24,000 bases of DNA from Pyrinomonadaceae bacterium (GTDB lineage: Bacteria > Acidobacteriota > Blastocatellia > Pyrinomonadales > Pyrinomonadaceae): positions 2,489,969-2,513,968 of the forward strand of contig OY969475.1 of NCBI GenBank assembly GCA_963700165.1, in the 5' to 3' direction. Position 1 is the stretch's first letter, and each line of letters begins with the position of its first letter. The position numbers and the translations under genes were made by a program. The notes under the pieces are model-generated. The model was not told the DNA's origin, did no database searches, and saw nothing but the letters and a program-made list of their open reading frames with translations. Below, one piece after another: positions 5,296 through 20,510 of the stretch.

Positions 5296-6501
5296 GTGAT
5301 TGAAGAGTTGAATTTGATGATCGTGGCGGGCGAGGCTTCGGGTGATGCTCATGCGGCGTCGCTGGTGGGGGCGTTGCGCGAGCGTGCGCCGCAGGTTGAG
5401 TTTAAGTTCTTTGGCTCGACGGGGCAAAAGATGCGTGGGGCGGGTGTGGAGTCTGTCGTGCGCGCGGACGAGTTGGCGATTATGGGTATCGTCGAGGTGG
5501 GAAAGGTGTTGCCGAAGTTCTGGCGCGCTTTTCGGGAATTGAAGCGCGCGGCGATTGAGCGTGAGCCGGATGCTGTGATTCTGGTTGACTGGCCTGAGTT
5601 TAATTTGCGGCTCGCACGCGCGCTGCACCGGAGGGGGCTTCGCGTCGTGTATTACATCAGCCCGCAGTTGTGGGCCTGGCGTTCTTACCGCGTGCGCAAC
5701 ATTCGTCGCGACGTAGACCAGTTGCTCTGCATTCTTCCCTTCGAGCCTGCGTGGTACGTTGAGCGCGGTATCACGCACGCGGAGTTTGTGGGCCACCCGC
5801 TCGCGGGCGAAGTTCATGCGCTGGACGACCGCGAGGAATTTTGCGCGCGTCATGATCTAGATTCAAAGAGGCCGATCATCGCGCTGCTGCCCGGCAGCCG
5901 TCATAAAGAGATTGAGCGCATCCTGCCGCCGATGCTCGATGCGGCGGCGATTGTGTCCGCCCAAAAACCTGACATCCAGTTCGTCCTCGCGCTCGCGCCT
6001 AACCGGCCTGTGGAAGAAGCCGAAGCAATCATCTCTGCCAAAAGCAGTGAATCGAGATTGCCGGAAGCTTTGCGCATCGTGCACCACGAGACGCGCGAAG
6101 CTCTCGCAGCGGCGGATGCGGCAGCCGTCGCCAGCGGCACGGCGACGCTCGAAGCCGCGCTCGTAGGGACGCCTTTCGTCATCGTCTACAAAGAATCTGC
6201 TATCAACTGGCACACGCTCGGTCGCCTGATTAACGCAGAACACTTTGGCCTCATCAACCTCATCGCAGGCGAGCGGCTGGTGACAGAGTTGATGCAACAC
6301 GATTTGACGGGAGAGAAGCTGGCGAAGGAATTGCTGTCGCTGCTTGACAGGCAACGTAACGAAGCCTTGCGCATGCGGCTCCGCGAAGCGACCGCCAAAC
6401 TCGGCGCGGGAGGCGCATCACTGCGCGCAGCCGATGCGATTCTCGGCAAGGTTCAAGAGTGGAGACAGGATAAGACAAAGCATGGTAGTGGTGCAGTTTG
6501 A
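5296..6501 (+). CDS. lpxB: Lipid-A-disaccharide synthase
   Basis: Collinear similarity to E. coli LpxB from memory: VAGEASGD, ELAIMGIVEV, VDWPEFNL, YYISPQLWAWR, ILPFE, GHPL, LLPGSR, ASGTATLE. Start is GTG at 5296, with an alternative ATG at 5317. The last five codons and the stop lie inside repeat copy B. Confidence 0.9.
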   Translation: MIEELNLMIVAGEASGDAHAASLVGALRERAPQVEFKFFGSTGQKMRGAGVESVVRADELAIMGIVEVGKVLPKFWRAFRELKRAAIEREPDAVILVDWPEFNLRLARALHRRGLRVVYYISPQLWAWRSYRVRNIRRDVDQLLCILPFEPAWYVERGITHAEFVGHPLAGEVHALDDREEFCARHDLDSKRPIIALLPGSRHKEIERILPPMLDAAAIVSAQKPDIQFVLALAPNRPVEEAEAIISAKSSESRLPEALRIVHHETREALAAADAAAVASGTATLEAALVGTPFVIVYKESAINWHTLGRLINAEHFGLINLIAGERLVTELMQHDLTGEKLAKELLSLLDRQRNEALRMRLREATAKLGAGGASLRAADAILGKVQEWRQDKTKHGSGAV

Positions 6502-6686: not shown

Positions 6687-8699
6687 ATGGCGGAACCAGA
6701 GCGCAAACTCGGCCCCTACACACTCGTCAGCAAGATCGGGCGCGGCGCTTTCGGCGTCGTCTGGCTCGCCGAAAAACGCTCCTCCATCGCCACTACCCGC
6801 TTCGCTCTCAAACTCCCACGCGACGAAGACATAGACCTGGACGCCTTCAAACACGAAGCCGCCATCTGGCTACAGGCCAGCGGACACCCGAACGTCGTCC
6901 CCATGATCGAGGCGGACATTTACGATGAGCAGGTTGTCATCGTCAGCGAGTACGTGACGGACGGGTCATTGGCCTCATGGCTCAAAGGGCACGGAGGCCG
7001 CGCGCCTTCGATTGAAGCGGCCACAGAGTTGATGGACGGCGTGCTGGCCGGACTCTCTCACCTGCATGAGCGGCATATCATTCACCGCGACCTCAAGCCT
7101 GACAACATCCTCTTGCAAAGAGAGACGCCGCGCCTCGCCGATTTCGGCATCGCGCGCTTGCTCAAATCCGGCTCGTACAGCACGAACGTCAGCGGGACGC
7201 TGGCTTATATGGCTCCCGAAGCCTTTGACGGAAAGCGTAACGAGCAGACGGACGTGTGGTCTGCGGGCGTCATCTTCTATCAACTGCTGGCGGGACGCTT
7301 GCCTTACGACCAGAGCGATACTGTCTCGTTCGTCGGCGCGATTATGCGACACGACCCGCCGCCATTGCCGGAGACTGTGCCCGAAGTCTTGCGACAGATA
7401 GTGATGAAGGCTTTAGAGCGAGAGGCTGCGAAGCGTTATGCGACGGCGAAGGAGATGCGAAGAGATTTGATTGAGGCCGAGCGGCTGCTGTGGTTGAAAG
7501 CGCGCGAAGGGCGAGAAGCCCTGCCCGTACCGGTCAAAGACCCGCAAGCCACGCTCGTGCTTCCTCCCGCAGAGGATAGGAAAGCGCAGACCAAGCCTGC
7601 AATCGAACTACCACCGACTATTCCAGCGACACCTCAGAGAGAGACAGACCGCACGGCGGAAAAGACTATCCCGCAATCTACTTTTCCGCTTGAGTTGCAG
7701 ACCGCCCAGACGATTGAGCCGACGCACGAAGAAGACAGCGCGCCATCGCCTGTCATTCCGGTGAAAGCACGCTCGCGCAGCCGTCTATGGCTGAGACGCA
7801 TCGGTGGCGTTTTGCTTTTGTGGATTCTCATCGCGGCGGGAATTTATCTGTGGATGACGAGAGACTATGCGAAGCAGACGTTAAGCGGACATACGTGGAT
7901 AGTCAATTGTGTTGTCTTCTCGCCCGACGGCAAGTTGCTGGCGAGCGCGAGTACTCAGGAGATAAACTTTTGGGATGCACAAACAGGTGCGTTGAAGCAG
8001 ACCTTAAAGGTCTCTGGCAGCAGGTATGAGTCAATCGCCTTCTCGCCCGACGGGAAATTGCTGGCAAGCGCAAGTACGGACGGGTTACGCTTGTGGGATG
8101 TGCAGACAGGGGAATTGAAGCAGACCTTAACCGGCGCCGGGTTAATATCGGTCGCCTTCTCGCCGGATGGGAAGACGCTGGCGAGCGGGAATGAGGGCTA
8201 CTTCAGGACGGTGAAACTGTGGGATGTGCAAACAGGCGCGTTGAAGCAGACCTTGAACGGGTCTAATCCAGTCGCCTTCTCGCCCGACGGGAAGTTGCTG
8301 GCGTATGTGGGGGAAGGCATCACGCTATGGGATGTGCAAACAGGCGAGTTGAAGCAGACCTTGAGCGGGGGTGAACCATTCGCCTTCTCACCGGACGGGA
8401 AGATGCTGGCGTGCAGGGCTGGCGAGTTGGTGAAAGTGTGGGAGGTGCAAACCGGTGAGCTGAAGCAGACCTTAACTGATTTGAGGATCGCTTCGGTCGC
8501 CTTCTCGCCGGATGGGAAGACGCTGGCGTGCGGGAGTTGGGACAAGACTGTGAAGCTATGGGACATACAATCCATCGCGTTGAAGCAGACCTTGATCGGG
8601 CATCGGTCTCAGGTGAATTCGGTCGCCTTCTCGCCGGACGGGAAAACACTGGCGAGCGCGGGTGAGGACGAGAAAGTGAGGCTGTGGCACGTCGAATAA
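6687..8699 (+). CDS. Hanks-type Ser/Thr protein kinase - single TM helix - seven-blade WD40 repeat protein
   Basis: Kinase motifs GRGAFGVVWLA, ALK, HRDLKPDNILL (7083-7106), DFG, APE. Pro-rich linker. Hydrophobic helix IGGVLLLWILIAAGIYLWM (~7800-7856), preceded by RSRSRLWLRR. Then seven VAFSPDGK-LAS....LWDVQTGELKQTL units. Confidence 0.9.
   Translation: MAEPERKLGPYTLVSKIGRGAFGVVWLAEKRSSIATTRFALKLPRDEDIDLDAFKHEAAIWLQASGHPNVVPMIEADIYDEQVVIVSEYVTDGSLASWLKGHGGRAPSIEAATELMDGVLAGLSHLHERHIIHRDLKPDNILLQRETPRLADFGIARLLKSGSYSTNVSGTLAYMAPEAFDGKRNEQTDVWSAGVIFYQLLAGRLPYDQSDTVSFVGAIMRHDPPPLPETVPEVLRQIVMKALEREAAKRYATAKEMRRDLIEAERLLWLKAREGREALPVPVKDPQATLVLPPAEDRKAQTKPAIELPPTIPATPQRETDRTAEKTIPQSTFPLELQTAQTIEPTHEEDSAPSPVIPVKARSRSRLWLRRIGGVLLLWILIAAGIYLWMTRDYAKQTLSGHTWIVNCVVFSPDGKLLASASTQEINFWDAQTGALKQTLKVSGSRYESIAFSPDGKLLASASTDGLRLWDVQTGELKQTLTGAGLISVAFSPDGKTLASGNEGYFRTVKLWDVQTGALKQTLNGSNPVAFSPDGKLLAYVGEGITLWDVQTGELKQTLSGGEPFAFSPDGKMLACRAGELVKVWEVQTGELKQTLTDLRIASVAFSPDGKTLACGSWDKTVKLWDIQSIALKQTLIGHRSQVNSVAFSPDGKTLASAGEDEKVRLWHVE
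7881..8696 (+). repeat. Intragenic WD40 repeat array with high internal DNA conservation (seven units of 35-42 codons)
   Basis: gtcgccttctcgcc(c/g)ga(c/t)gggaag..ctggcg recurs seven times, and tgggatgtgca(a/g)acagg.g.gttgaagcagacctt recurs five to six times. Differences and indels fall in the segments between these blocks. Confidence 0.85.
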
Positions 8700-8874: not shown

Positions 8875-9951
8875 TCACATATTTTGTGTCTCCGTGTCCG
8901 TCTCTTTGATTCTCTCTTCCAGCTCGGCAACTTTCCGGCGCAGCTCTTTGACCTCTTCGCGCAGTTGGGGCAGGCGATTCATGTGTGCGTTGAGTCGTTT
9001 GTAATCTTCTAAGGGCTGCACGGGGATGCCCCACCAGACTCCCGCGCGCACGATCTTACCGGGCAAGATGCCCGCCTTTGAGCCTATGATCGCGCCCGAT
9101 TGCACGCGCGCGTGATCGCCCATCCCGACCTGCCCGCCGATGATGGCATCGTCTTCAATCACTGTGCTGCCGGAGATGCCCGTCTGCGATGCGATGACGA
9201 CGCGCTGGCCGATCTGCACGTTGTGCGCGATTTGCACGAGGTTGTCTATCTTGGCCGCGCGACCGATGCGCGTCTCTCCGAGCGCGCCACGATCAATACA
9301 CGTCGCGGCTCCAATCTCTACATCGTCTTCGATGATGACTGTGCCAATCTGCGGAAACTTGTGGCGAAAATTATTTTCATCGGGCACGTAGCCGAAACCG
9401 TCTGCTCCGATGACCACGCCCGCATGCAGAATCACACGCTCTCCCACAGAGACGCCTTCATACAGGACGACGTTCGGATGGATGATGCAATCGCGCCCGA
9501 TGCTCACGTCGTCTCCGACACACGCTCCATGATAAAGCTGTGTTCCCTCGCCTACATTCGCGCGCTCGCCGATTGAGACATGCGCGCCGATGTAAACGTC
9601 TTCGCAGACTTGCGCGCTGGCGGCGATGATGGCGGTCGGATGAATCGAAGCAGGCAATCTTTTCGGCGGATGCAAAATCTCTGCGATTAAAGCGAAGGCG
9701 AGTTTCGGGCGCGCAACACGAATCAAGCATTTGCCTTCCAACTCGGGAGAAGCTTCCGGCACGATCAGGCACGCAGCGTGACTGTCAAGAGCGTTTTCCA
9801 GCATCTTCGCATCTTCAACGAAAGCGATTTCGTTTTCCGACGCTCTTTCAATGCTTGCCACGCCTCTGATGACAATGCTGCCATCGCCCGCAACGCTCCC
9901 GCCAACATGCGCCGCCAGTTCAGCCACCGTTTTCTCTTTGTGTGCGCTCAT
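8875..9951 (-). CDS. lpxD: UDP-3-O-acylglucosamine N-acyltransferase
   Basis: N-terminal LpxD-type domain (LAAHVGG...I.GVASIE.A...EIAFVED), a long left-handed beta-helix of hexapeptide repeats, GADGFGY motif, C-terminal helical tail. Lies 21 nt downstream of lpxA. Confidence 0.9.
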   Translation of the reverse strand: MSAHKEKTVAELAAHVGGSVAGDGSIVIRGVASIERASENEIAFVEDAKMLENALDSHAACLIVPEASPELEGKCLIRVARPKLAFALIAEILHPPKRLPASIHPTAIIAASAQVCEDVYIGAHVSIGERANVGEGTQLYHGACVGDDVSIGRDCIIHPNVVLYEGVSVGERVILHAGVVIGADGFGYVPDENNFRHKFPQIGTVIIEDDVEIGAATCIDRGALGETRIGRAAKIDNLVQIAHNVQIGQRVVIASQTGISGSTVIEDDAIIGGQVGMGDHARVQSGAIIGSKAGILPGKIVRAGVWWGIPVQPLEDYKRLNAHMNRLPQLREEVKELRRKVAELEERIKETDTETQNM

Positions 9952-9972: not shown

Positions 9973-10800
9973 TCAACCGAAAGATTCAGCCTGTCCGGCC
10001 ATTGCTTCCTCCGTAGCACCTTGCTGAAGTTTTCGGGCGCGTGTAAATCCGCGTCTGGATGCTTTGATAAATTTGAACAGATGCTGAACGTGCTCGTCCT
10101 CCGATTGCTCCATCTCTGTCAGAGCATCTTCCAGAGGCAAGGCCGAGCGAAACAGAAGCTGATAAGCTCGCTTCAAATTGCGTCGCGCTTCAGAGGAAAA
10201 GCCTGCGCGCCTCAAGCCCACAGTGTTCAAGCCGCGCACGCGCGCAGGGTTGCCGTCCGTGATAAAGAACGGCAGCACGTCCTGCACTATCTTCGACTTG
10301 CCGCCGACCATCGCATAACGTCCCATCCGCACGAACTGGTGCGCGCCCGCATTGTTCGAGAGAAAGACGTGGTCTTCGACACAGATATGTCCCGCCAGCG
10401 CAGCCCCGTTGGCAAAGATGTTGTCGTCTCCGACCTCGCAGTTATGCGCGAGGTGAACGCCGATCATCAAAAAATTGCGGCTGCCGACGCGCGTCACTTC
10501 CCCTTCGCCGCTCGCGCGATGAATCGTCACGTACTCCCGAATCAAATTGTCATCGCCGATTACTAAGCCGCTCCGCTCGTCCTTAAACTTCACATCCTGC
10601 GGCTCGCCGCCGACCACCGCGTGCTCGTAAATACGATTGCGCTTTCCCAAAGTGGTGAAGCGTTTGATGACGGCATGCGCGGCGATGTCGCAGCCTTCAC
10701 CGATGGTCACGTCGTCTTCGATGACGGCGTAAGCCCCGACGCGCACGTCTGCCGCGAGACGCGCTTGCGGGCTGATGATGGCTGTCGGATGAAGACTCAT
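9973..10800 (-). CDS. lpxA: Acyl-ACP--UDP-N-acetylglucosamine O-acyltransferase
   Basis: Collinear with E. coli LpxA from memory: HPTAII, hexapeptide repeats, VTIHRA, VGS.N.LM...H.AH.C.VG, HQF...G..AMVGG, GLN..GLRR.GFS.E, AY.LLFRS. Confidence 0.9.
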   Translation of the reverse strand: MSLHPTAIISPQARLAADVRVGAYAVIEDDVTIGEGCDIAAHAVIKRFTTLGKRNRIYEHAVVGGEPQDVKFKDERSGLVIGDDNLIREYVTIHRASGEGEVTRVGSRNFLMIGVHLAHNCEVGDDNIFANGAALAGHICVEDHVFLSNNAGAHQFVRMGRYAMVGGKSKIVQDVLPFFITDGNPARVRGLNTVGLRRAGFSSEARRNLKRAYQLLFRSALPLEDALTEMEQSEDEHVQHLFKFIKASRRGFTRARKLQQGATEEAMAGQAESFG

Positions 10801-10995
10801 GATGCGCCGAAAATGTCAGGCGCGATAGTACATGCACGACGATTGCTGTCGCAAGATGACTTAACCCGAAAGAGATTTTTACCGGCTGGAAACAGCAGGG
10901 TATGATTTGGATTTTAAAGACGTAGACGCTTTCGTGTGATGATGAGCTTGTCGCAGATGAATGAGCGTGCTGGTTGAAACAGGGACTCTACCTTA

Positions 10996-13755
10996 TCAAT
11001 TGCCCAAGAATTTTTGTTGCTCCTGCGGTGTCAGTGGCTGCCGCGTCTGGGGACGCTTTCTGGCTAGTTCAAGCAGGTCATCTATAGAATCTGGCAGGTC
11101 AGTGGGATCAGTGGTTCTCCAGACGCGCGCCGATTTATCCGCGCCCCCGGTGACCATAAAATCACCTTTGGGGCTGAAGGCGACGCTGTATATCCAGTTC
11201 TTGTGTCCGCGAAATTCGCTTAGCACTGTCCATACTTTATCCGGCGTTTGCCTCCATATCCGCGCATTGTAATCCCAACATGCTGTCGCGATGTCATCTT
11301 TAACGGGGCTGAATGCTGCGTCATACACGATATGCGGGTGATTCAAGAAGTGTTCCTGCTCCTTACCCGTCTCTAAGTACCAGACGCGCGCCGTCCTGTC
11401 GCCACTCGCGGTGACGACGAGCTTGCTATCTTGACTGACCCCCGCGCCATACACTGAAGCGGTATGCCCGTTCAATCTTAATTCAGGCTTCCATGTGCCG
11501 CCGACCTGCCATACCAATACCACGCTACTCTGTCCCGTTGTAATAATGTGCTTGCCGTCAGGGCTGAAGTTCACATCGAAGACTGCGCCGGTATGTCCTT
11601 TCAGTTCCATGGGACGGGCGTCGCCCGCTGGCGGCGATGATGGCGGCGTTCCCGGCGGTTGCTGTGTGCCTTCTTGTGGCGGAGGCTGCGCGCCTCCTTG
11701 TGGCGGGGGTGCTGTCTTAACTCCCTGCAAGACGGCTTCCTGCTCCCACGTTTCAACCTTCCAGACCTGTGGCGAAGGGTCATCGCTCGTGGTGATTAGA
11801 TAGCTGCTGTCAGGACTGAATGCCGCGCTATAAACCCTCTGGTCTTTTTCCGCCAACTTGCGCAACGGGGTGACTTTTAACAGTGGGAGGGGCTGCCAAT
11901 TGCTGACCTCCCAAACGCGCGCCGTGCTGCCCTCCAAGTTTGCCGCAACCAGATATTTTCCGTCAGGGCTGAACGACACTTTACGCGCGCCTTTTGAATA
12001 TTTGCCGGGATCATCCTGTGGCTGTAGCTCTTTGACGAGAGCGCCTGTTTTCGCATCCCACACCTTGACCGGCTCAGACAGAGCCGCCGTTGCGATCAAT
12101 GTTCCGTCATGATTGAACACAGCGTTTCTCACTTCGCCATTATGCGGTAAGACAAGCTCCGTGTGAGTTTGGAGCAAAGCCGCTTTGAGAGCTTGTCTGG
12201 CTTCATTGGTAGGGCTTTCTTTGACCGCCTCGATAGCCAGGAGCAGGCTCAAGTCAGGATCAGAGGCCACATGCGCGAAGGCATGAGCGGCTATCGCGCG
12301 CGAACGGGATTCCTTGTTGGCGCGGCGAGCCGCTCTCCACTGGTAGATCGCGACGCCCGTTGCTGCGATGGCTATTATCAAGAGCAGCGACAATCCGCTC
12401 ACCTGTTTGCGCAGCCGAAGTGATTCCATCCGTTCGCGCTGGCGCTCGGCCTCTGCCTGTTCCTTCTTGAGCCGTTCCTGCTCTTCGCGCTTGATGCGCT
12501 CCTGCGTTTGCTGCTCCGTATAACGGCGTCGCCAATCGAGGATTGATGCGCCCAACACGTCATGAAAAATCTCGTAGCGCAGATTGTCCGGCTGATCCGG
12601 CGGCGGGGAGACAGAGCGCAGGATACGCACTTCCGGCGAGCCGAGCAGCATCAGGACGCGGCTGGCATCTGCGTCGGGCAGCTCGACATAAGAGGCGAGG
12701 TCTGCGGGCGTGTGCGCGATCTTCATGCCGGAGGGCGTGACCAGATAACGAAACAGGCGCGCGGCGATGTCGCGTTCGCTCTCCGGCAGCTTGTTCATCA
12801 CCGTATCCAGATGCGTCCGCACGATGCTCTGCGCTCCGCCGAGCCGCTGCAAAGTCTCAAGCCGCAGCAGATGTGACCCGGCTGCCATCTCTTCATTCCA
12901 GAGACGCATCAAGACCATTTGTAAGAACGGCGTCTCGATGCGCGAATCTTCGCCGAGATGGTCTGGCAGGCGTGCGCTGCCGCCTTGCCCGTGCCCGGAT
13001 TGTGCGATGGTAACTTTGCCTGTCTTCACCTGTTCGAGCAGGGATTCGACAAGGCTGTCTTCGATAGAGACTTGCGGCTGGCCTTCTTTCAAATTCCGGT
13101 TATAACTGTCGAGCGGTTTGAGCACCGCCTCGCGCCCAGCTTCCATGTCCAGATGTTCCAGCCGCAGCATGTTGCCGAGCAGTCTGGGGATGCGCCCGCG
13201 AAAGCGATCCAGCTTACTCAGGCCGTCATCCCGCAGCGAGAGCAGAAAGTTTGCATCCACTTCCTGACGATTGACGGCTCTGGCAAACTCCGCGTCAAAG
13301 CCTTCGTCCGACTGCGTGGGCGGATGATAAAGACAAAACTCTTCAAACTGATCGAAGAATAAGAAGATGGGGCCGCGCAAGTGCTTGCCGCACCGCAAGA
13401 GGAATTCATCGAGCGGGAGAGCCAGATCAACGTCTACAGCTTTGCCGGTTTTTTCCGTGACGGCGCGCAATATCTCGCGCTTGAGCATCGTCGCAAAGCC
13501 CGCGTCCTGCCATTGCCGGAAGACGACCACTGCGAGCCTCGGCTCGCGTCTCAATTGCGGCACGACGCCCGCCAGCAAGACAGAGCTTTTGCCGACCCCG
13601 CTCGCGCCGTACAGAATCGTCAAAGAGGCCGCGTACAAATTCGAGGCAATGATCTCCTGATCGCGCTCGCGCCCGAAGAAGTAAGCGCGGTCAGCCTCCG
13701 TATACGGTTGCAAACCTTTGTAGGGACAAAAATTTGTGGGCAGCTCGCTAGACAT
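10996..13755 (-). CDS. nSTAND-type P-loop NTPase - coiled coil - hydrophobic helix - WD40 repeat protein (NLR-like)
   Basis: N-terminus CPYKGLQPYTEADRAYFFGRE + LYGASGVGKSSVLLAG (Walker A, 13582-13608) + FLFFDQFEE (Walker B) matches the novel-STAND-NTPase-1 pattern. Charged coiled coil at aa ~410-450. Hydrophobic helix VSGLSLLLIIAIAATGVAIYQW (12340-12402). C-terminal WD40 blades (FSPDGK..., GH...V, WD/VW motifs), with a Pro/Gln-rich insert at 11611-11715. Confidence 0.85.
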   Translation of the reverse strand: MSSELPTNFCPYKGLQPYTEADRAYFFGRERDQEIIASNLYAASLTILYGASGVGKSSVLLAGVVPQLRREPRLAVVVFRQWQDAGFATMLKREILRAVTEKTGKAVDVDLALPLDEFLLRCGKHLRGPIFLFFDQFEEFCLYHPPTQSDEGFDAEFARAVNRQEVDANFLLSLRDDGLSKLDRFRGRIPRLLGNMLRLEHLDMEAGREAVLKPLDSYNRNLKEGQPQVSIEDSLVESLLEQVKTGKVTIAQSGHGQGGSARLPDHLGEDSRIETPFLQMVLMRLWNEEMAAGSHLLRLETLQRLGGAQSIVRTHLDTVMNKLPESERDIAARLFRYLVTPSGMKIAHTPADLASYVELPDADASRVLMLLGSPEVRILRSVSPPPDQPDNLRYEIFHDVLGASILDWRRRYTEQQTQERIKREEQERLKKEQAEAERQRERMESLRLRKQVSGLSLLLIIAIAATGVAIYQWRAARRANKESRSRAIAAHAFAHVASDPDLSLLLAIEAVKESPTNEARQALKAALLQTHTELVLPHNGEVRNAVFNHDGTLIATAALSEPVKVWDAKTGALVKELQPQDDPGKYSKGARKVSFSPDGKYLVAANLEGSTARVWEVSNWQPLPLLKVTPLRKLAEKDQRVYSAAFSPDSSYLITTSDDPSPQVWKVETWEQEAVLQGVKTAPPPQGGAQPPPQEGTQQPPGTPPSSPPAGDARPMELKGHTGAVFDVNFSPDGKHIITTGQSSVVLVWQVGGTWKPELRLNGHTASVYGAGVSQDSKLVVTASGDRTARVWYLETGKEQEHFLNHPHIVYDAAFSPVKDDIATACWDYNARIWRQTPDKVWTVLSEFRGHKNWIYSVAFSPKGDFMVTGGADKSARVWRTTDPTDLPDSIDDLLELARKRPQTRQPLTPQEQQKFLGN

Positions 13756-13895
13756 TCTAGTGTCAGGGAAACGGATATACTAAAATTTCAAAACGCGAAG
13801 GCAGGGCTTTGCGTCTTGAGTTCTTTTTGTCCCTTGAAGGTTTTAATTACTCTCTAACCTAAGTTGCTAGTGATAGATATTTTGCTAGACTTCTT

Positions 13896-14058
13896 AAATT
13901 GCCACTAGCTTCAGCTAGTGGATCGAGGTTTCTCCTAGCCGTCGGCTTTAGCCGAACAATTTAAGCTGAAGCAATAAGGACCAGGATTTATTTGTATTTT
14001 GGCTCAAGCCTGCTTTCTGTTGTGCCATGTCTCCACTAGCTAAAGCTAGTGGCAATTT
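13896..14058. repeat. A/T-rich inverted-repeat element (CCACTAGC family) between the SIR2-like and STAND genes
   Basis: Termini AAATTGCCACTAGCTTCAGCTAGTGG (13896-13921) and CCACTAGCTAAAGCTAGTGGCAATTT (14033-14058) are inverted copies; each is itself a palindrome. The interior has mini-palindromes (GGCTTTAGCC, GCCGTCGGC, GGCTCAAGCC). Confidence 0.7.
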
Positions 14059-14083
14059 ATTAATTCGCAATTTGGGTTATTTT

Positions 14084-15025
14084 CTAAGTGACTTGCTCAC
14101 TCAGCACGCGAACAAACTCGTTGATGTCAACATCGAAAATCTGCACCTTGCGCGCATCCCACAGTTTGGTCTCAAGGTAAGAAGGCTTGAACTGGATAGC
14201 CCATGAGCTTATTTCCTCATCTTCTTCCATGTCCTCCGAATCCCCTCCGGTCGGGAGCGCAGTTCGCAGGTTCTTGAGCACCACTCGCAAATTCCAGTCG
14301 CGCAGCCCGTAACCCAGAAACAGAAAATAGCGCGAGCGGAAATAGCGCATGAACTGCGCGGGCACAGCCGTCTGCCCCGTCATGCGCGAGAGGAAATCCA
14401 CGTAGTCCTCTTCCGTGATGACATAGCTGTCCCACTTCTGCGCCGTGCGATCCACCGTGCCGTGCATCTTGTAGATAACGGAAGTCGTCTTGAGATCAAC
14501 GATGAGCTGGTTAGGCTCCACGACCTGCGGCTCAGCCGCGCCGTGCTTCCACCAGAGGACAGAGGCTTCGACATCCTTCCGGTCGGTCGGGTGAATCACG
14601 AGGTCAAAGGGCAGGCCGAGATTGTTAAAAGCGCGCTCCGTCAAATCGTCATAATTGGTCGTGACGATCAGGAGCGGCGTGTTGCGCGAGGCTTCCGCGA
14701 GATAATTGTGTATCGGGCACGGCTCGAAGTCCTTGTCAAAAACCTCTTTGAGCCGCTCGCGCAGGCGTCGGCGCTTGGTCGTCTCGACAAAGTAAGAGGC
14801 GACTTTGGCGAGGTCTATCGTGTCGCTTTCACTGTCTGCGGGAAAGCTGATTTTCGAGGCGAGAAAGCGCGACAATTCTGCCCCGCTCGGCAGGAAAGGG
14901 CTGTTCATCTCCCACGGTGAGCCGGGCGGCTGGCGCGTCCCGAAATTGACGCCCGCGCCTAAGAAGGGGACGACCTCGCCCCTCTTCAACAGCTCCGCGA
15001 TTTCTCCATACGGTGGATCGTGCAT
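14084..15025 (-). CDS. SIR2-like domain protein (SIR2_2/DHS-like NAD-binding fold); candidate NADase effector
   Basis: VVPFLGAGVN (Rossmann Gly-rich loop), LLIVTTNYDDLTERAF (Asn124, codons 14648-14662), IYKMHGT (His188, codon 14462-14464), VITEEDY, FLFLGYGLRDWN. These match the stand-alone SIR2_2 family pattern. At 313 aa there is no room for a SLOG or other fused domain. Confidence 0.8.
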   Translation of the reverse strand: MHDPPYGEIAELLKRGEVVPFLGAGVNFGTRQPPGSPWEMNSPFLPSGAELSRFLASKISFPADSESDTIDLAKVASYFVETTKRRRLRERLKEVFDKDFEPCPIHNYLAEASRNTPLLIVTTNYDDLTERAFNNLGLPFDLVIHPTDRKDVEASVLWWKHGAAEPQVVEPNQLIVDLKTTSVIYKMHGTVDRTAQKWDSYVITEEDYVDFLSRMTGQTAVPAQFMRYFRSRYFLFLGYGLRDWNLRVVLKNLRTALPTGGDSEDMEEDEEISSWAIQFKPSYLETKLWDARKVQIFDVDINEFVRVLSEQVT

Positions 15026-15224
15026 CAGAACCCTTCAAGCGTTAGTGAGAGTTTCAGGGAAAGAGCGTCCGGTCAAGCGTGGCTCATAAAATTCAGAAAA
15101 GGCATAAGTTAAACGGCAAGAAAAGACTTAACCGTGAAGCCTACAGAGACAGTGAAGCCGGAAAAGATACCAACCAGAGCTTATACGCCTCTCACAAATC
15201 GGTGTCAATAATTATCCCGCTTCG

Positions 15225-15397
15225 GTAGTGGGCCAGTTTCAAACATGGCAAAGAAAAAACAGGTTCCCGCAAAGGCGCAAAGACGCAAAGCAAGCAATCA
15301 AGATAAAGCACCGCTCAACCCCTTTGCGTCTTTGCGCCTTTGCGGGAGGTTCTTTCCTGATGCTGGATGACACTTGAATTTCAAACTGACCCACTAC
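15225..15397 (-). mobile_element. MITE-like fold-back element, copy C (inverted relative to copies A and B)
   Basis: Termini GTAGTGGGCCAGTTTCAAA ... TTTCAAACTGACCCACTAC. The interior ggcaaagaaaaaacaggttcccgcaaaggcgcaaagacgcaaagcaagca is the reverse complement of the copy B segment tgcttgctttgcgtctttgcgcctttgcgggaacctgttttttcttttcc. Confidence 0.65.
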
Positions 15398-15550
15398 CCC
15401 CGCGTCCTGCACGCCCTGACCAAACGCTATCTCCTTCTGACACCTTGCCTTAAACTGCTATAGACACTATCATGTGATGCCGCAAAGCTTTGCGCCTTTG
15501 ATGGGCGCGGGCGATAGCGGAGAGTTAGAGCTTACATCAAGTATTTAGGA

Positions 15551-17569
15551 GTGCGCAGAAGTGTGCGCTCTGCCTTCATTAAGGAGATTGTATCTTTGTT
15601 TAGCGATCAATTTCGCCGAGGCGAATCAAACAAGGGAAGATTCAGCGGGGTCAAAAGCTCCAAGCTGATCTCGAACCTTTCGGATGTGGCGTGGAAGGCG
15701 TTTCAGTCCATCAACCAGCGTCTGCCGGAAGGCGAGGCGATTCGACCGAAGTGGGCAGCAGAGCCACTTCTGAAATCTTATGAGCGCACTGCGCCGCCAT
15801 TGGGCTTCCCGCGCGAGACGGACTCTTTGTGCCCGCGCTGCGTCACGGAAGTCAGGAACGCAGTCATCACCGGCGAGACGACGCTTGAGACCTTGATGCA
15901 CCAGCATCCGGGCGAAATCAAGGCGCAGATTCTGGAAGAGAACGGACAGGTCATCATGCGCAAGACCTGCCCGAAGCATGGCGAGTTTACGGACGTGATG
16001 GCGACCGACCCGAAATTTTTGGAGCGCATCGAATCTCTCTTTTATGGACGCGACTTTCGCTCTGCCGAAGACTCGCACGTTCACAAGCACGGCACATCAA
16101 ACATCAAGTTCGGACGCGGCGCGGTGTTGACGGTTGACCTGACGAATCGCTGCAACATGATGTGCAACCCGTGCTTCATGGATGCCAATCAGGTCGGCTA
16201 TGTGCACGAGCCTACGTTTGAAGACACGAAGGCGATTTTAGACAACGCCGTCTCCTTCAAACCAAAGCGACAGATCATCATTCTCTTTTCCGGCGGCGAG
16301 CCGACGCTCTCGCCTTACTTTCTTGACGCGGTCGCTTATGCCAAAAAAGTCGGATTTTACAGAATCCTAGCGGCCACCAACGGCATCCGCTATGCCGAAG
16401 ACATAGAGTTCTGCAAAGCCGCTAAAGCTGCCGGGCAGCATGGCGTCTACCTGCAATTCGATGGCGTCTCTGAAGAGAAGAACAAGCATCGCGGCGTCGG
16501 CAACCTGTTTGATGTCAAGCTGCGCGCGATTGAAAATTTGGCGAGCGTCGGCATCAAGGTCACGCTCGTGACGACCATCGTCAACACGATTAACAATGAT
16601 GCTATCGGGCAGATCGTCGAGTTCGCGGCGCAGAACATAGACAAAGTTCAGACCATTGCGTTCCAGCCGGTCTCGTTCACGGGTCGCGATGAAGACGTGC
16701 CTGACGACATTCGCATGCAGCAGCGTTACACGCTCGCGGGCATGACGCATGACCTCAAAGACCAGCTCGACGGCAAATTGCAGCCACTGCGCGATTGGTT
16801 TCCGCTCTCTTCTTACTCTGCGTTTACGAGCGTGATGGACATGTTGCAGGGCGCGGACGCGCCGTGGGGCTGGTCTAGTTGTAACTGCCATCCGAACTGC
16901 GGCATCTTTACGTTGATCGTCGTCAACCGCCAGACGGGCGAGATGAATTCGCTCTTCGATTTTTTCAACTACGAGCAGTTCATGAAAGACGTGGCGGTGA
17001 TTACGGACACGGCGCGCGGCAAAAAACTTTCTTACGCGCAGCTTGGCATGGCTATCATGCGCAACTATGACGCGGCGCGTGCGCCCGAAGGCTTTCCCAT
17101 CTCGCAGATCGTCAATCTCTTCAAGCCGTCTTCGACCAACTCAAGCTCTGATCGCAACGACCGCATGAAGGCGCAAGGGACAACTGCCGACTCGAACGAC
17201 ATGTGGCGCGTGCTCTGCGTCGAGGGCATGTGGTTTCAGGATTTGTTCAATTACGATTTCCGCCGCACAGAGATGTGCGTGATTCCCTACGGCACACAGG
17301 AAGGCGAAATCTCTTTCTGCGCTTACAACACAGGAGTCGGCTGGCGACAGATTATCGAGAACATGCACAAGACCGCCAGCCTCTCCGAATGGTATGAAGA
17401 GCATGGACGCCATGCTGTCTATGCCAAAGGCAAAGCCGTGCCCGGCATCTCCAAAAAGCATTCGCTCTCGCTGCCCATCGTCCATCAGATTCTGGCGGAA
17501 GATAGAGGCGAGGACACAAGGCCGGTGACGCCTTATCTGATTGAAGAAGACGAGAAGATCACTGTCTGA
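15551..17569 (+). CDS. Large radical SAM enzyme, COG1964-type (Tes / GDGT-MAS tetraether-synthase-like)
   Basis: N-terminal Cys pairs CPRC...(~40 aa)...CPKHGEF. Canonical CX3CX2C motif CNMMCNPC (16151-16174). GGEPTL. Further Cys motifs SSCNCHPNCG and MCVIPYG...ISFCAYN. 672 aa. The start is uncertain: GTG at 15551, or in-frame TTG at 15596 with an AGGAG 9 nt upstream. Confidence 0.7.
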   Translation: MRRSVRSAFIKEIVSLFSDQFRRGESNKGRFSGVKSSKLISNLSDVAWKAFQSINQRLPEGEAIRPKWAAEPLLKSYERTAPPLGFPRETDSLCPRCVTEVRNAVITGETTLETLMHQHPGEIKAQILEENGQVIMRKTCPKHGEFTDVMATDPKFLERIESLFYGRDFRSAEDSHVHKHGTSNIKFGRGAVLTVDLTNRCNMMCNPCFMDANQVGYVHEPTFEDTKAILDNAVSFKPKRQIIILFSGGEPTLSPYFLDAVAYAKKVGFYRILAATNGIRYAEDIEFCKAAKAAGQHGVYLQFDGVSEEKNKHRGVGNLFDVKLRAIENLASVGIKVTLVTTIVNTINNDAIGQIVEFAAQNIDKVQTIAFQPVSFTGRDEDVPDDIRMQQRYTLAGMTHDLKDQLDGKLQPLRDWFPLSSYSAFTSVMDMLQGADAPWGWSSCNCHPNCGIFTLIVVNRQTGEMNSLFDFFNYEQFMKDVAVITDTARGKKLSYAQLGMAIMRNYDAARAPEGFPISQIVNLFKPSSTNSSSDRNDRMKAQGTTADSNDMWRVLCVEGMWFQDLFNYDFRRTEMCVIPYGTQEGEISFCAYNTGVGWRQIIENMHKTASLSEWYEEHGRHAVYAKGKAVPGISKKHSLSLPIVHQILAEDRGEDTRPVTPYLIEEDEKITV

Positions 17570-17585
17570 TTAGAACATTCCTGTT

Positions 17586-17678
17586 CTTTGCGTCTTGAGT
17601 CTTTCTTTGTTTGCGCCACCAGCGTGCAACGTTGCTGGTTCTCGCTGGTGGCGCAAAGATAAGAGATAAGACGCAAAG
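17586..17678. repeat. CTTTGCG-type palindromic element; probable terminator of the radical SAM gene
   Basis: Arms ctttgcgtctt...gcgccaccagcg (17586-17624) and cgctggtggcgc...aagacgcaaag (17643-17678), with a 12-bp perfect inner stem GCGCCACCAGCG/CGCTGGTGGCGC. Starts 17 nt after the stop codon and is followed by ggttttg. Confidence 0.55.
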
Positions 17679-17885
17679 GGTTTTGAATGAATCAGCAGTT
17701 GAGTTTTTAAAAATTTCTAAGCTGGTAAATATCCGCGCTGATTTGTTTTATGCAGTAAAGTTCCTTCTCTGGCCCTGACTGCACGTTATCACAGCCTGCA
17801 AATTAACCCGACACGCACTCAAAAGGCTGCCTACACATTCTGAGGTTTCCTTAGAATATAACCCCATAGAAAGAGTTTTTAGATA

Positions 17886-18758
17886 ATGAGAAAAGCACTA
17901 TCCGTATGTTTTTTAGCCTTATTGGTTTTGAATTTGACATTGCCCCTTTCCGTGACACGGGCGCAGGAGGCGGCAAAGGCTTCGCAACAGGATCAAACAA
18001 TTTCCCCGACCTTGAAAAATGAAGATGTCCTGACAATGCTTAAAACAGGTCTTTCGCCTGAGATCGTGATTGCTAAAATCAAAGCTTCTGCCTGCGAGTT
18101 CAACACGACCCCTGCGGCCTTGCAGGAACTCAAGACAGCCAATGTGCCTGAAGCGGTGATTATGGCTATGGTACAGGCTCCGGTCGGCGTGGCCGGAAAT
18201 TCTGTTGCGAGTTCCAATGACGCAGCAGGCAGCGTTGAAGTGAGAATCCCTGACGGCACGCCTCTGGAAGTCGAACTCATGTCGAACCTCTCTTCGGCGA
18301 CAGCCAAAGAGGGTGACATCATTGACTTCACGGTCGTCTCTCCGGTTGTCGTCAACGGAGTCACGGTGATTGAAAAGGGCGCGCCTGCGAAAGCCCGTGT
18401 GGCGGGCGTCAAGAAAGCAGGCTACTGGGGCAAAGCCGGAAAGATCGGCTGGACGATGCAGGAAGTGCTATTGGTTGACGGCAATCGCACGCCTCTGCGT
18501 ATGGAAAAGAAGTTGACGGGCGACAGCAAGGGCGGCACAGTGGCGACAGCTACGATTGTGACGGCTGTGGTCTTCTGGCCTGCTGCTCCGTTCTGGGGAT
18601 TTAAGAAGGGCAAGAATGCTGTGTTCCCTGCCGGCAAGCGTTTTGAAGCCTTCGTGCATGGCGATGTCAAGGCGAAAGGTACGCCCGTCAGGATGACAGC
18701 CATGCAACCCGTCACCGAGCAGACAAAAGCTCAGACCACGGAAACAGCCAAACCTTAA
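17886..18758 (+). CDS. Hypothetical secreted/membrane-anchored protein
   Basis: Signal-peptide-like N-terminus MRKALSVCFLALLVLNLTLPLSVTRAQEA. Hydrophobic segment TVATATIVTAVVFWPAAPFWGF near the C-terminus. I recognise no family. Confidence 0.6.
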   Translation: MRKALSVCFLALLVLNLTLPLSVTRAQEAAKASQQDQTISPTLKNEDVLTMLKTGLSPEIVIAKIKASACEFNTTPAALQELKTANVPEAVIMAMVQAPVGVAGNSVASSNDAAGSVEVRIPDGTPLEVELMSNLSSATAKEGDIIDFTVVSPVVVNGVTVIEKGAPAKARVAGVKKAGYWGKAGKIGWTMQEVLLVDGNRTPLRMEKKLTGDSKGGTVATATIVTAVVFWPAAPFWGFKKGKNAVFPAGKRFEAFVHGDVKAKGTPVRMTAMQPVTEQTKAQTTETAKP

Positions 18759-18908
18759 GAGCGAGGCTATTGTTTCGCTCTAAGTGCCGAGCGCGTCTCT
18801 GCAAGCTTGAATCCGGCGATGTATTTATCAATAATGCTTGCGATTCAAGTTTGCAGAGAAGCTTTACTAAAGAGAGCTTAGTCTTTTTAAAACATTCCGT
18901 TCGACCAT

Positions 18909-19919
18909 TTGCTCCTGATGAAACTATCACAGAAAATCAGCCGTCTAGCCACGACCGCAAAGCTTTTCGTTTCCGGTCTGCCGAAAAACTCTGTTGGCTC
19001 GATTGATGTCACCAATCGCTGCAACCTGCGCTGCGAGCATTGCTACTTTTTCGCCGAAGATCATAAGGGCGAAAAGGAACTCACGAACGACCAGTGGATT
19101 GAAAAGCTCGAAGCGATGAAGGCTGCGGGACATCCGATGCTGCTCTGCACCTGGGTCGGCGGCGAGCCGATGGTGCGCCGCTCGCTGATCGAAATCGGGC
19201 GCAAATATTTTAAGCACAATACCATCGTCACCAACGGCACGATGGAATTGCCGGACTGGCAGGATTGCACCTATGTCATCTCGATAGACGGCACGGAAGA
19301 AGCCTTTGCGCGGATGCGCGCTCCCGGCCTGTACCAGAAGATTAAGCAGAATGTCATAGACCATCCCGAACTGAGGATTCAAATCTCCTGCGTGCTGACG
19401 AGCATCACCAAAGATTGCGTCGAAGAGCTGGTCAAAGAATGGGGCACGATTGCGCGCAGCGGTGTGATTTTTGATTTCTTTACGCCCGTCACGAATTTGG
19501 ACGAAGCATTGTGGCTCGATTGGGAAACGCGCGACCGCTTGATAGACCAGATACTCGCTTTAAAGAAGAAATATCCGGGCGTTATCAACATGCTGGATTC
19601 GACGCTTGATTTGATGAGATCGAAGAACGCCAAGCGCGTCACGGACAACTGCGAGTTTGCCAAAAAAGCTTTCGCGCTCAACCCGACCGGAAAGCAGAAA
19701 GGCAAATGTATGATGGGCGATAACGCGGACTGTGACCGTTGCGGCTGCGTCGTTCCCTTTCACATGGCAACCCTCAGCAGCCGCCGCTTGATGCTCAAAG
19801 AGACCATCAAAAAACAGTTCGCTCCGAAAAGACCTGCCTCCATGTCTCCGCAAAAACCCGTCCAGATTGCCGCGCGAACTTCATGGCAAAGCTCCGCCAG
19901 ACCGGACGACGCATTTTAA
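18909..19919 (+). CDS. Radical SAM protein with a C-terminal Cys-rich (SPASM/twitch-like) motif
   Basis: IDVTNRCNLRCEHCYF (CX3CX2C, 19020-19043), WVGGEPM, C-terminal CMMGDNADCDRCGC. TTG at 18909 per the ORF track; the first ATG is at 18918. Confidence 0.75.
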   Translation: MLLMKLSQKISRLATTAKLFVSGLPKNSVGSIDVTNRCNLRCEHCYFFAEDHKGEKELTNDQWIEKLEAMKAAGHPMLLCTWVGGEPMVRRSLIEIGRKYFKHNTIVTNGTMELPDWQDCTYVISIDGTEEAFARMRAPGLYQKIKQNVIDHPELRIQISCVLTSITKDCVEELVKEWGTIARSGVIFDFFTPVTNLDEALWLDWETRDRLIDQILALKKKYPGVINMLDSTLDLMRSKNAKRVTDNCEFAKKAFALNPTGKQKGKCMMGDNADCDRCGCVVPFHMATLSSRRLMLKETIKKQFAPKRPASMSPQKPVQIAARTSWQSSARPDDAF

Positions 19920-19921
19920 GA

Positions 19922-20009
19922 AATTAAAAATTAAAAATGTAAAGTGCAAAATTGAAGACAGCATCTCTCGCCTCTTCAATTTTGCACTTTACATTTTTAA
20001 TTTTTAATT
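19922..20009. repeat. A/T-rich perfect 36-bp inverted repeat (hairpin) between convergent genes
   Basis: The left arm 19922-19957 is the exact reverse complement of the right arm 19974-20009, with a 16-nt loop. It starts 3 nt after the radical SAM stop codon and contains the stop codon of the minus-strand HisKA ORF. Confidence 0.85.
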
Positions 20010-20332
20010 GTTCCGTCTGCTTCCTGTTCGTCATCGTAGCCTTGTGCGGGAATCGGGCGCTGCACGTTGCGGAGGCGGGCGACGGTGTCTCTGATGCGGG
20101 CGGCAAGCTGCTCTATGGTTTCGACGCGCCGACGCGCCGAATCGCTCAGTTCATCGCGCAGCAGTAGTTGCGCCTGACCGATCACGCCCGTCAGAGGGTT
20201 GTTGATTTCGTGGCGGACATGCGCTACCAAATCCGCAATTTCCGTGAGCTTTGCTTCATGCTCGGCGATTAATTTGCGCAAGTCTTCTTCCGTTGTTCTA
20301 TCATTCCGGGCGAGCGGGTTGTCTGTGCTCAT
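19997..20332 (-). CDS. Stand-alone HisKA (dimerisation/phospho-acceptor) domain protein; truncated or orphan histidine-kinase fragment
   Basis: H-box VAHVRHEINNPLTGVIGQAQLLL. No N/G1/F/G2 ATPase boxes before the stop. The start is uncertain: ATGs at 20332, 20380 and 20566. The track's TTG start at 20605 overlaps the tRNA and is rejected. Confidence 0.45.
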   Translation of the reverse strand: MSTDNPLARNDRTTEEDLRKLIAEHEAKLTEIADLVAHVRHEINNPLTGVIGQAQLLLRDELSDSARRRVETIEQLAARIRDTVARLRNVQRPIPAQGYDDEQEADGTIKN

Positions 20333-20510
20333 CTTGGCTTTTGAAGATTCCTTTGTCGTAAATGATACCGGCGGAGACATATGAACGACGAAAGGCGCAT
20401 CTGGTCGGCCTCTCACCTTTGGGGCAGAGCAGCTTGAAAGCTCTGGCTTGTATTGTGCGTCGGATACGTCGTCTTGGGCAAGCTTAATTTTCACGTCTCG
20501 CGCACGGCGG

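Follow-up and report, generated by a model that had tools for sequence, protein, structure and literature searches.

The locus described here raises the question of whether two neighboring genes of a Pyrinomonadaceae bacterium (Acidobacteriota), one encoding a 313-amino acid (aa) protein with a SIR2 domain and the other a 919-aa protein with an nSTAND1 NTPase module, a predicted transmembrane helix and a WD40 domain, form one functional unit and, if so, what kind of unit this may be. Both genes are located in a stretch of 24,000 nucleotides, referred to as the window, and served as the reference pair. Open reading frame (ORF) calling and translation placed both ORFs on the minus strand, in full agreement with an earlier note on this DNA. 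The evidence presented here supports the SIR2 gene and the nSTAND1 gene as a two-gene unit that is kept together across bacterial phyla. By analogy with characterized systems, the pair appears, on balance, to be one conflict (immune-type) module consisting of a membrane-anchored STAND switch and a trans-acting SIR2 protein that would deplete NAD+.

The linkage of the two genes was analyzed by scanning one genome per species for SIR2 relatives, which yielded 271 stretches. The best 80 of these (46-92% identity) were analyzed by calling ORFs and searching them with the window NTPase module and an iterated profile. An nSTAND1 gene or gene fragment was found next to the SIR2 gene in all 80 loci, including L023, L050, L062 and L071, whose called ORFs are over-extended. 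The nSTAND1 gene is directly downstream and on the same strand in 76 loci; the order is reversed in L044, L048, L053 and L061. Gaps between the two genes are mostly between -4 and about +25 bp, and ATGA-type 4-bp start/stop overlaps are frequent. These loci span about a dozen bacterial phyla, with the pair being found in Acidobacteriota, Chloroflexota, Verrucomicrobiota, Planctomycetota, Gemmatimonadota, Geobacter and other Desulfuromonadales, alpha- and betaproteobacteria, Polyangiaceae, Dadabacteria and KSB1. When loci were chosen by NTPase similarity alone, a SIR2_2 gene was found immediately upstream in 3 of 3. Moreover, SIR2 and NTPase distances were correlated in a mirror-tree comparison of 79 full pairs (r = 0.79), with none of 999 permutations giving a value above 0.20.

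When 1.84 billion representative proteins were searched exhaustively with the SIR2 protein, 514 clusters, defined at 50% identity, were obtained at E <= 1e-30, and eleven of the top 150 clusters have a length of at least 600 aa. Six of these were confirmed by Pfam as single-chain nSTAND1-(HEAT)-SIR2 fusions, and BLAST aligned three more long SIR2 proteins with the NTPase of the window (about 30% identity); the fused relatives carry SIR2 at the C-terminus. These Rosetta-stone fusions link the function of this SIR2 clade to nSTAND1 on independent grounds. The division of effector and switch between two genes, which the earlier note had proposed, is therefore borne out by the neighborhood survey, the reverse test, the co-divergence and the fusions, and chance adjacency is ruled out by the linkage data. 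Two further fusions were a Pfam-confirmed CHAT-SIR2 protein (P0294) and a 516-aa DUF4062-SIR2 protein (P0285). DUF4062 has reportedly been described in a 2026 preprint as a TIR-like NAD+ hydrolase (NADase), and both proteins would be double-effector proteins.

Some genomes carry two to three paralogous SIR2-nSTAND1 pairs, and diverged paralogous pairs share a locus or a genome in L001, L006, L038, L045 and L060. In L001, a 6.27-Mb Pyrinomonadaceae genome, the first pair is followed by an orphan 290-aa SIR2 gene and then by a second, highly diverged pair (14287-20508), an arrangement also found in L011; paralogous modules are thus arrayed in tandem here. The second pair of L001 consists of a 311-aa SIR2 gene that overlaps a gene for a 1442-aa nSTAND1-WD40 protein, and its SIR2 protein matches that of the window at an E-value of 2e-13 only. 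L028 (5124-10584) has two nSTAND1 genes in tandem after a single SIR2 gene, both encoding propellers of the PD40/DPPIV_N type, and one effector may serve two receptors in this locus. The pair is also carried by a cultured organism, Geobacter hydrogenophilus DSM 13691 (L068).

The 313-aa protein, for which SIR2_2 hallmarks had been claimed, was placed in the SIR2 superfamily by Pfam (SIR2_2, PF13289; E-value 2.9e-22, 79.7 bits compared to a cut-off of 24.5). A motif script located GAG at residues 23-25, TTNYD at 122-126 (N124) and KMHG at 186-189 (H188), and the residues of the GAG, N124 and H188 regions are invariant across 42 SIR2 homologues. The best protein match, from a Pyrinomonadaceae metagenome-assembled genome, is 92% identical; the 120 closest SIR2 protein clusters have identities of 68-92% and, where the source is named, are nearly all from Acidobacteriota. 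A PDB search with a profile of the 42 homologues identified only ThsA, KomC, DSR2 and a 278-aa SIR2 chain from the KomBC complex (9v0g). The AlphaFold2 model shows a SIR2 fold only, with a helix at residues 6-14 and a strand at 18-22. Foldseek searches with this model gave 12 matches at E <= 0.001 (7.5e-8 to 5e-6), all of which are defense SIR2 NADases (KomC, SeThsA, DSR2 and EfAvs5, 9jap); classical sirtuins, such as SIRT2 and Leishmania Sir2, appeared at E-values of about 0.08 only. In addition, the entire protein contains one Cys and hence has no sirtuin Cys4 zinc module. The protein does not fit the classical sirtuin deacylases, given the single Cys and the lack of a close fold match to Sir2/SIRT. 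By sequence and predicted fold, the protein is thus assigned to the defense-type NADase branch and not to the classical sirtuins, and its similarity to ThsA, DSR2, KomC and Avs5 suggests that it hydrolyzes NAD+. PADLOC gave partial matches only (ThsA, PDC-S25, generic SIR2 and Dsr2) and an NCBIfam search of the SIR2 protein found no family.

For the 919-aa protein, the earlier note had listed an nSTAND1-like NTPase, a coiled coil, a hydrophobic helix and WD40 blades. All of these domains were found, with the qualification that the coiled coil corresponds to a long charged helix in the AlphaFold2 model. Pfam confirmed both nSTAND1 (PF20703; E-value 8.6e-41, 141.3 bits compared to a cut-off of 27.1, residues 11-438) and WD40 (PF00400; E-value 4.5e-45). 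The motif script located the Walker A motif GASGVGKS at residues 50-57 (with K56) and FDQFEE at 134-139; residues G50, G53, G55, K56, D135, Q136, F137, E138 and E139 show no variation among 45 NTPase homologues. In the AlphaFold2 model (mean predicted local distance difference test score, pLDDT, of 82.7), the NTPase module extends to about residue 396 and is followed by the charged helix (399-446), a break, a helix (455-494) that holds most of the hydrophobic stretch at 452-471, two short helices and the propeller (532-880). Foldseek matched the propeller to seven-bladed WD40 domains with a target-normalized TM-score of about 0.9, while the best match of the full-length chain was Apaf-1. A P/Q/G-rich insert, TAPPPQGGAQPPPQEGTQQPPGTPPSSPPAGDARP, is found within the propeller, and the confidence of the model is low between aa 679 and 711. 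No family was found for the 919-aa protein in PADLOC (E <= 0.01) or NCBIfam, the homologous partners also had no PADLOC match, no significant hit was obtained when PDB sequences were searched with the NTPase module, and no adaptor domain (EAD, Death-like) was found by Pfam on either protein. Comparisons with L005, the closest relative and the one used for local comparison, gave ratios of non-synonymous to synonymous substitution rates (dN/dS) of 0.15 (SIR2), 0.32 (NTPase) and 0.31 (WD40 region), which indicates purifying selection on both genes.

The putative membrane helix that the earlier note had placed between NTPase and sensor is present in the window protein, and the family comparison adds that it is conserved and can be regarded as a defining feature, predicted from sequence, of the sub-clade in which SIR2 and nSTAND1 are split. 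In nearly all split partners, one strongly hydrophobic segment is located between residues 410 and 520, directly after the NTPase module. Only L033 and L072 lack such a segment; two other apparent exceptions fall just below the threshold. Some split partners have 3-5 hydrophobic segments and no soluble C-terminal domain, and the helix is absent from all nine fused proteins with a C-terminal SIR2. Charges were counted in the 15 residues before and after the core of 62 non-redundant single-helix proteins, where the core has a mean length of 21.3 residues. The mean number of Lys and Arg residues is 5.95 in the N-terminal flank and 3.16 in the C-terminal flank, and the N-terminal flank carries more of them in 56 of the 62 proteins. 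An RRxRR-like motif that abuts the helix on its N-terminal side is conserved in the family and, as apparent from a listing of the flanks, many of the cores end in aromatic residues.

According to the positive-inside rule, the positively charged flank of a membrane helix stays in the cytoplasm. The charge bias of the family therefore points to a signal-anchor that would keep the NTPase in the cytoplasm and place the C-terminal domain beyond the membrane. As the flanks of the window protein are balanced, this topology rests on the family and not on the window protein itself. PD40 or DPPIV_N (TolB-like) propellers, which are typical of periplasmic proteins, are found in some split partners. An N-in/C-out orientation also fits with the lack of the helix in the fused proteins and with the presence of a similar Arg-rich flank in a neighboring kinase gene. 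This gene (6687-8699, plus strand), located between lpxB and lpxD, encodes a 670-aa Ser/Thr kinase with a transmembrane helix (aa 372-390, after RSRSRLWLRR) and a WD40 domain. A recent origin of the WD40 domain of the 919-aa protein by copying from the kinase was rejected, as the two show only generic similarity at 28% identity. Overall, the C-terminal sensor probably is extracytoplasmic. Since the effector is C-terminal in the soluble relatives, and since that end would be extracellular here, a cytoplasmic SIR2 would have to be a separate polypeptide.

Analysis of 71 non-redundant C-terminal regions showed that this sensor is highly variable. WD40 was found in 35 of the 71 regions, TPR in about 11 and pYEATS in 5, and the remaining regions carry PD40, a kinase with multiple transmembrane segments or FGE-sulfatase, or have no assigned family. 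By sequence, the 36 regions without WD40 form no fewer than 14 clusters that are unrelated to each other; at least 15 unrelated sensor types are thus found on a constant core of SIR2 and NTPase. Even at one chromosomal site in Blastocatellia, WD40, short TPR or other sensors are combined with a conserved core. A WD40 sensor in place of TPR, which had been put forward as a distinguishing trait of the window pair, is therefore not one.

A gene for a 1,200-aa CHAT protease is located immediately upstream of SIR2 in many relatives. A survey of third genes in this position identified CHAT in 8 loci and, in one locus each, patatin (L032), subtilase (L063) and another nSTAND1 gene (L082); the genes at the remaining loci are unrelated. 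With no recurring third gene beyond CHAT in 8 loci, the core of the module consists of two genes. In a separate look-up, L087 was also found to have a patatin gene upstream of SIR2, in the place of CHAT. The patatin genes (L087, 3360-4994; L032, 8057-9862) and the subtilase gene (L063, 7923-9983) thus occupy the position used by CHAT elsewhere, and the slot upstream of SIR2 looks like a swappable site for accessory effectors. CHAT is optional to the module; neither CHAT nor patatin is present in the window. A tblastn search for a CHAT remnant in 15026-15550 found none, and L005 also has no CHAT gene. PADLOC and NCBIfam contained no family for the CHAT protein. In L002, a 437-aa ORF (11043-12356) is located between SIR2 and nSTAND1; it is also present in L003, L004, L008, L009 and, judged by gap size, probably L010. 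This ORF, which had no match in Pfam, NCBIfam or PADLOC, may represent either an additional part of the module or an inserted mobile sequence.

The 328-bp gap between the two genes of the window does contain a repeat element, as the earlier note had stated. Its inverted arms of 35 nt were mapped to 13888-13922 and 14032-14066, and each arm holds a palindrome of 20 nt. The element folds with -74.4 kcal/mol (z = -7.2), and its palindromic core has 2 matches compared to 0 expected by chance. It is missing from L005, where the gap is 168 bp, and a search of 84 loci found no copy. The gap is thus a lineage-specific insertion of a hairpin element and not the ancestral state. A second palindromic element, similar to miniature inverted-repeat transposable elements (MITEs) and different from that in the gap, is located at 15224-15398; it has an outer inverted repeat of 20 nt (15224-15243 and 15379-15398) and an inner perfect repeat of 26 nt (15265-15290 and 15322-15347), and blastn showed it to be an insertion relative to L005. 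SIR2 is therefore bracketed by two lineage-specific hairpin insertions. An Rfam search of the gap and the upstream region returned sub-threshold "miRNA precursor" matches only, which reflect the hairpin. A scan of 10800-15600 identified 4 promoter-like sites compared to 2.2 expected from shuffled sequence and 5 terminator-like sites compared to 5.7 expected; none of these sites is on the coding strand within the gap.

In Blastocatellia, the pair is located between a divergently transcribed radical-SAM gene (Zn_ribbon_HMPTM) and lpxA/lpxD, which suggests that this site is a hotspot for integration or part of a conserved island. Outside Blastocatellia, the pair adjoins unrelated genes, such as polA in L088. 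The lipid-A genes of the window, lpxB (5296-6501), lpxD (8875-9951) and lpxA (9973-10800), are interleaved with NLR-like (nucleotide-binding leucine-rich repeat receptor-like) and receptor-like genes. When plasmids were searched with the SIR2 protein by tblastn, the only match (32% identity) came from an 11.85-Mb Nonomuraea record, a chromosome-sized replicon. A search of a phage collection found nothing, and IMG/VR contained 4 distant relatives with 26-31% identity. Mobility on known elements is therefore unsupported by the plasmid, phage and IMG/VR searches.

Taking these results into consideration, the following mechanism can be proposed. The 919-aa switch would be anchored in the inner membrane through aa 452-471, with the NTPase in the cytoplasm and the WD40 propeller in the periplasm. 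Once the propeller has bound a ligand from the envelope or from outside the cytoplasm, the cytoplasmic NTPase modules would oligomerize in an NTP-dependent manner, and the resulting oligomer would recruit and assemble the separately encoded SIR2 protein. The assembled SIR2 protein would then hydrolyze NAD+, as do ThsA, DSR2, KomC and Avs5, and cause growth arrest or death. Activation of a SIR2 NADase by filament or oligomer formation has been established for Avs5 (PMC11897194), and the PDB titles of the Foldseek matches provide oligomer or filament precedent for ThsA and KomC. The variable sensors, the paralogous pairs, the optional CHAT, patatin and subtilase genes and the CHAT-SIR2 and DUF4062-SIR2 fusions support the character of a conflict system. 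In its most novel form, the module would be an "outside-in" NLR-like receptor, in which a membrane-spanning STAND NTPase relays a signal from a hypervariable extracytoplasmic sensor across the membrane and assembles a trans-acting SIR2 NADase; this form is proposed tentatively and is itself rather doubtful.

A number of observations weigh against a membrane-anchored conflict module. The window protein has no positive-inside bias, with 6 Lys and Arg residues in each flank, and a membrane between sensor and NTPase bars the auto-inhibition by direct contact seen with Apaf-1 and Avs proteins. With the sensor beyond the membrane, activation would therefore have to differ from the known STAND mechanism. 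The SIR2 model is of moderate confidence (pLDDT 69.9), with TM-scores of about 0.5 to its PDB matches, the NTPase partner matches no PADLOC model, and Pfam shows no adaptor domain that would account for docking of SIR2 onto the NTPase. In the window, the hairpin element separates the two genes, so that their co-transcription is putative. Furthermore, the fixed site in Blastocatellia looks more vertically inherited than that of a typical mobile defense gene, and close relatives were not found on the phages, plasmids or viral contigs searched.

Part of this evidence could also be accommodated if the same NADase module had a helix that is re-entrant or merely tethers the protein to the inner membrane face, with a cytoplasmic WD40 domain that senses an invader protein inside the cell and close to the membrane, in the manner of classical Avs and NLR-like proteins. 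All characterized bacterial STAND sensors are cytoplasmic (PMC11897194, PMC12931631, Lee et al. PMC13581612), typical cytosolic STAND sensors include WD40 and TPR, and both the balanced flanks of the window protein and the missing helix of L033 and L072 would be in line with a tether. However, a core of about 21 aa has bilayer-spanning length, the N-terminal flank is the more positive one in 56 of 62 proteins, many cores have aromatic ends, some relatives have 3-5 transmembrane segments instead of a soluble sensor, and the fused forms lack the helix, which makes a tether unlikely. A housekeeping role in transmembrane signaling (envelope or cell-cell), in which SIR2 would ADP-ribosylate or deacylate a specific target or regulate NAD+ metabolism without lethal NAD+ depletion, is judged equally improbable. 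Synteny with lpxA, lpxD and lpxB throughout Blastocatellia, the conservation of SIR2 (68-92% in the 120 closest clusters), the absence from mobile-element collections and the receptor-kinase-like topology are all consistent with such a role. Evidence against it is provided by the unrelated neighbors outside Blastocatellia (polA in L088), by a SIR2 protein that belongs to the defense NADase branch by fold and sequence and has no zinc module, and by the sensor swaps at one locus, the expansion of paralogues and the add-on CHAT, patatin and subtilase genes, all hallmarks of conflict systems.

Still less probable is that the module is uncoupled or decaying in the window genome, with CHAT lost and an operon broken by the hairpins that flank SIR2. 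The gap of 328 bp, where most loci have about -4 to +25 bp, the MITE-like insertions at 13888-14066 and 15224-15398, both absent from L005, and the missing CHAT remnant could be read in this way. On the other hand, both ORFs are intact with complete catalytic motifs, the dN/dS values are 0.15 and about 0.3, L005 is also without CHAT, most loci of other phyla never had CHAT, and the gap has no terminator-like site on the coding strand.

Among characterized systems, the conflict module proposed here most closely resembles Avs5 (AVAST type 5, with EfAvs5 and PaAvs5 as examples), for which phage-triggered filamentation and NAD+ depletion have been shown experimentally (PMC11897194, PMC12931631). 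Both combine a SIR2 NADase, a STAND NTPase and a C-terminal repeat sensor, and Foldseek matched the SIR2 model to 9jap at an E-value of 5e-6. Accordingly, the order of events expected from the Avs5 studies would be a trigger, an NTPase-dependent oligomer or filament and hydrolysis of NAD+ (PMC11897194, PMC12931631). By analogy, the pair probably works in an Avs5-like manner. In contrast to Avs5, where SIR2 is fused N-terminally, SIR2 is separate here and C-terminal in the fused relatives; the window NTPase belongs to the nSTAND1 clade and has no PADLOC AVAST match; a transmembrane helix is located between NTPase and sensor; and the SAMD9-like sensor of Avs5 is replaced by WD40, TPR, pYEATS or PD40. 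Without the N-terminal fusion and the Avs5-type NTPase and sensor, the pair is not a member of Avs5.

The nSTAND1 clade was named by Kaur et al. (PMC8195603). The systems described by Kaur, Burroughs, Iyer and Aravind (PMC7159879, PMC8195603) share with the window pair PF20703, a constant NTPase with variable sensors and swappable effectors, and an occurrence in environmental bacteria; the repertoire of Kaur et al. also includes pYEATS and FGE-type sensors and caspase/CHAT and trypsin-like effectors. Effectors of those systems are, however, coupled through shared EAD or Death-like adaptors, and none was found in the window pair, where nSTAND1 starts at residue 11 and the SIR2 fold at about residues 5-20, and Pfam shows no further domain. 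The term SIR2 occurs once in the main text of PMC8195603 and not at all in that of PMC7159879, and never beside nSTAND1; a conserved transmembrane helix of an nSTAND1 sub-clade is not mentioned in the main text of either paper.

ThsA, DSR2 and KomC are the nearest relatives of the 313-aa SIR2 protein by sequence and structure, and have the catalytic Asn and His in common with it. Unlike ThsA of Thoeris, the 313-aa protein has no SLOG/STALD domain, and its matches to the PADLOC ThsA profile (478 positions) are confined to a fraction of the SIR2 section of that profile (best stretch 141-212). Adjacency to ThsB, as in Thoeris, was also not found, as the sole TIR gene of the window (2623-5034, plus strand) is about 9 kb away and itself encodes a TIR-NB-ARC-TPR protein. 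This 803-aa protein, encoded between a gene for an FG-GAP/SBBP repeat protein and lpxB, has no transmembrane helix and shows a classical soluble NLR-like architecture; its TIR domain matches the PADLOC ThsB model at an E-value of 3e-34. The pair differs from DSR2 and SIR2-HerA in that the SIR2 protein has 313 aa and no giant fused sensor, with nSTAND1 and radical-SAM genes as neighbors and not HerA. It differs from KomC (Kongming) in that KomA and KomB partners are not present here and the partner is a STAND NTPase.

Receptor Ser/Thr kinases of the PknD type have extracellular beta-propellers. The 919-aa protein resembles these kinases, as well as the kinase encoded in the window, in having a cytoplasmic catalytic module, an Arg-rich flank, one transmembrane helix and a beta-propeller, but its output would be a STAND NTPase with a trans-acting SIR2 and not a kinase. 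Apaf-1, the best full-length structural match (E-value 7e-26), likewise has both a STAND NTPase and a propeller of WD40 repeats as sensor. The global TM-score, however, is about 0.3, no NB-ARC is found among the 25 Pfam families listed for the 919-aa protein, and Apaf-1 has no membrane helix and uses CARD to reach its effector, where the pair has SIR2.

The statement of the earlier note that no characterized system with this split arrangement of SIR2 and nSTAND-WD40 is known to its author still holds, as neither PADLOC-DB 2.0.0 nor the literature yielded a listed or characterized equivalent of the pair. Literature searches on nSTAND1, SIR2-STAND and transmembrane or periplasmic STAND proteins did not identify a description of the pair, and those on SIR2-STAND and on transmembrane or periplasmic STAND proteins returned only Avs5 or unrelated papers. 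Term searches of the main text of a 2026 census of 589 STAND clades (including nSTAND) identified, in both versions, no SIR2-in-trans or transmembrane STAND arrangement. To our knowledge, all characterized bacterial STAND immune receptors (Avs1-21, bNACHT, CapRel-type and others) are soluble and sense phage proteins intracellularly, and with few exceptions receptor and effector are fused in one protein. The pair would be a STAND and NADase conflict system that is split, uses the nSTAND1 clade and spans the membrane.

The module is widespread among soil and sediment bacteria. It would add a STAND clade (nSTAND1) with a dedicated trans-acting SIR2 protein and provide a test case for activation of a separate NADase by a STAND oligomer. 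The two-gene SIR2-STAND unit alone is solid but unsurprising; an extracytoplasmic sensor would surprise specialists. If the sensor is indeed extracytoplasmic, this may be the first transmembrane STAND receptor of its kind, with pattern recognition occurring before or at cell entry. Candidate threats that could be sensed at the periplasm or envelope include phage adsorption or genome ejection, a competitor toxin and a predator, and the logic of such a receptor would be nearer to that of Toll-like receptors than to that of cytosolic NLR or Avs proteins.

Table 1. Coordinates of the features of the SIR2-nSTAND1 locus within the window.
Feature	Position (nt)	Strand	Basis
SIR2_2 protein, 313 aa, stand-alone, predicted NADase effector	14084-15025	-	Pfam, motifs, PDB profile, Foldseek
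SIR2 motif sites	14951-14959 (GAG); 14654-14656 (N124); 14462-14464 (H188)	-	
Intergenic gap, 328 bp, with MITE-like hairpin element at about 13888-14066	13756-14083		Fold and copy search
nSTAND1-transmembrane-WD40 protein, 919 aa, predicted switch and sensor partner	10996-13755	-	Pfam, AlphaFold2
nSTAND1 NTPase module, aa 11-438	12442-13725	-	PF20703 and motif positions
Walker A GASGVGKS (K56) and Walker B FDQFEE	13585-13608 (Walker A); 13339-13356 (Walker B)	-	Motif script
Long charged helix, aa 399-446, linker from NTPase to membrane segment	12418-12561	-	AlphaFold2 secondary structure
Hydrophobic transmembrane-type helix, aa 452-471, VSGLSLLLIIAIAATGVAIY	12343-12402	-	Kyte-Doolittle 2.41
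Seven-bladed WD40 beta-propeller, aa 532-880, predicted sensor	11116-12162	-	WD40 Pfam, AlphaFold2, Foldseek
P/Q-rich disordered insert, aa 679-715 of propeller	11611-11721	-	Low-pLDDT AlphaFold2 segments
Upstream intergenic region, presumed promoter region of the pair	15026-15550		Holds second palindromic element

Another ORF of the window (17886-18758, plus strand), which has no Pfam family, encodes a 290-aa protein with a signal peptide-like N-terminus and is located between two radical-SAM genes (15551-17569 and 18909-19919).

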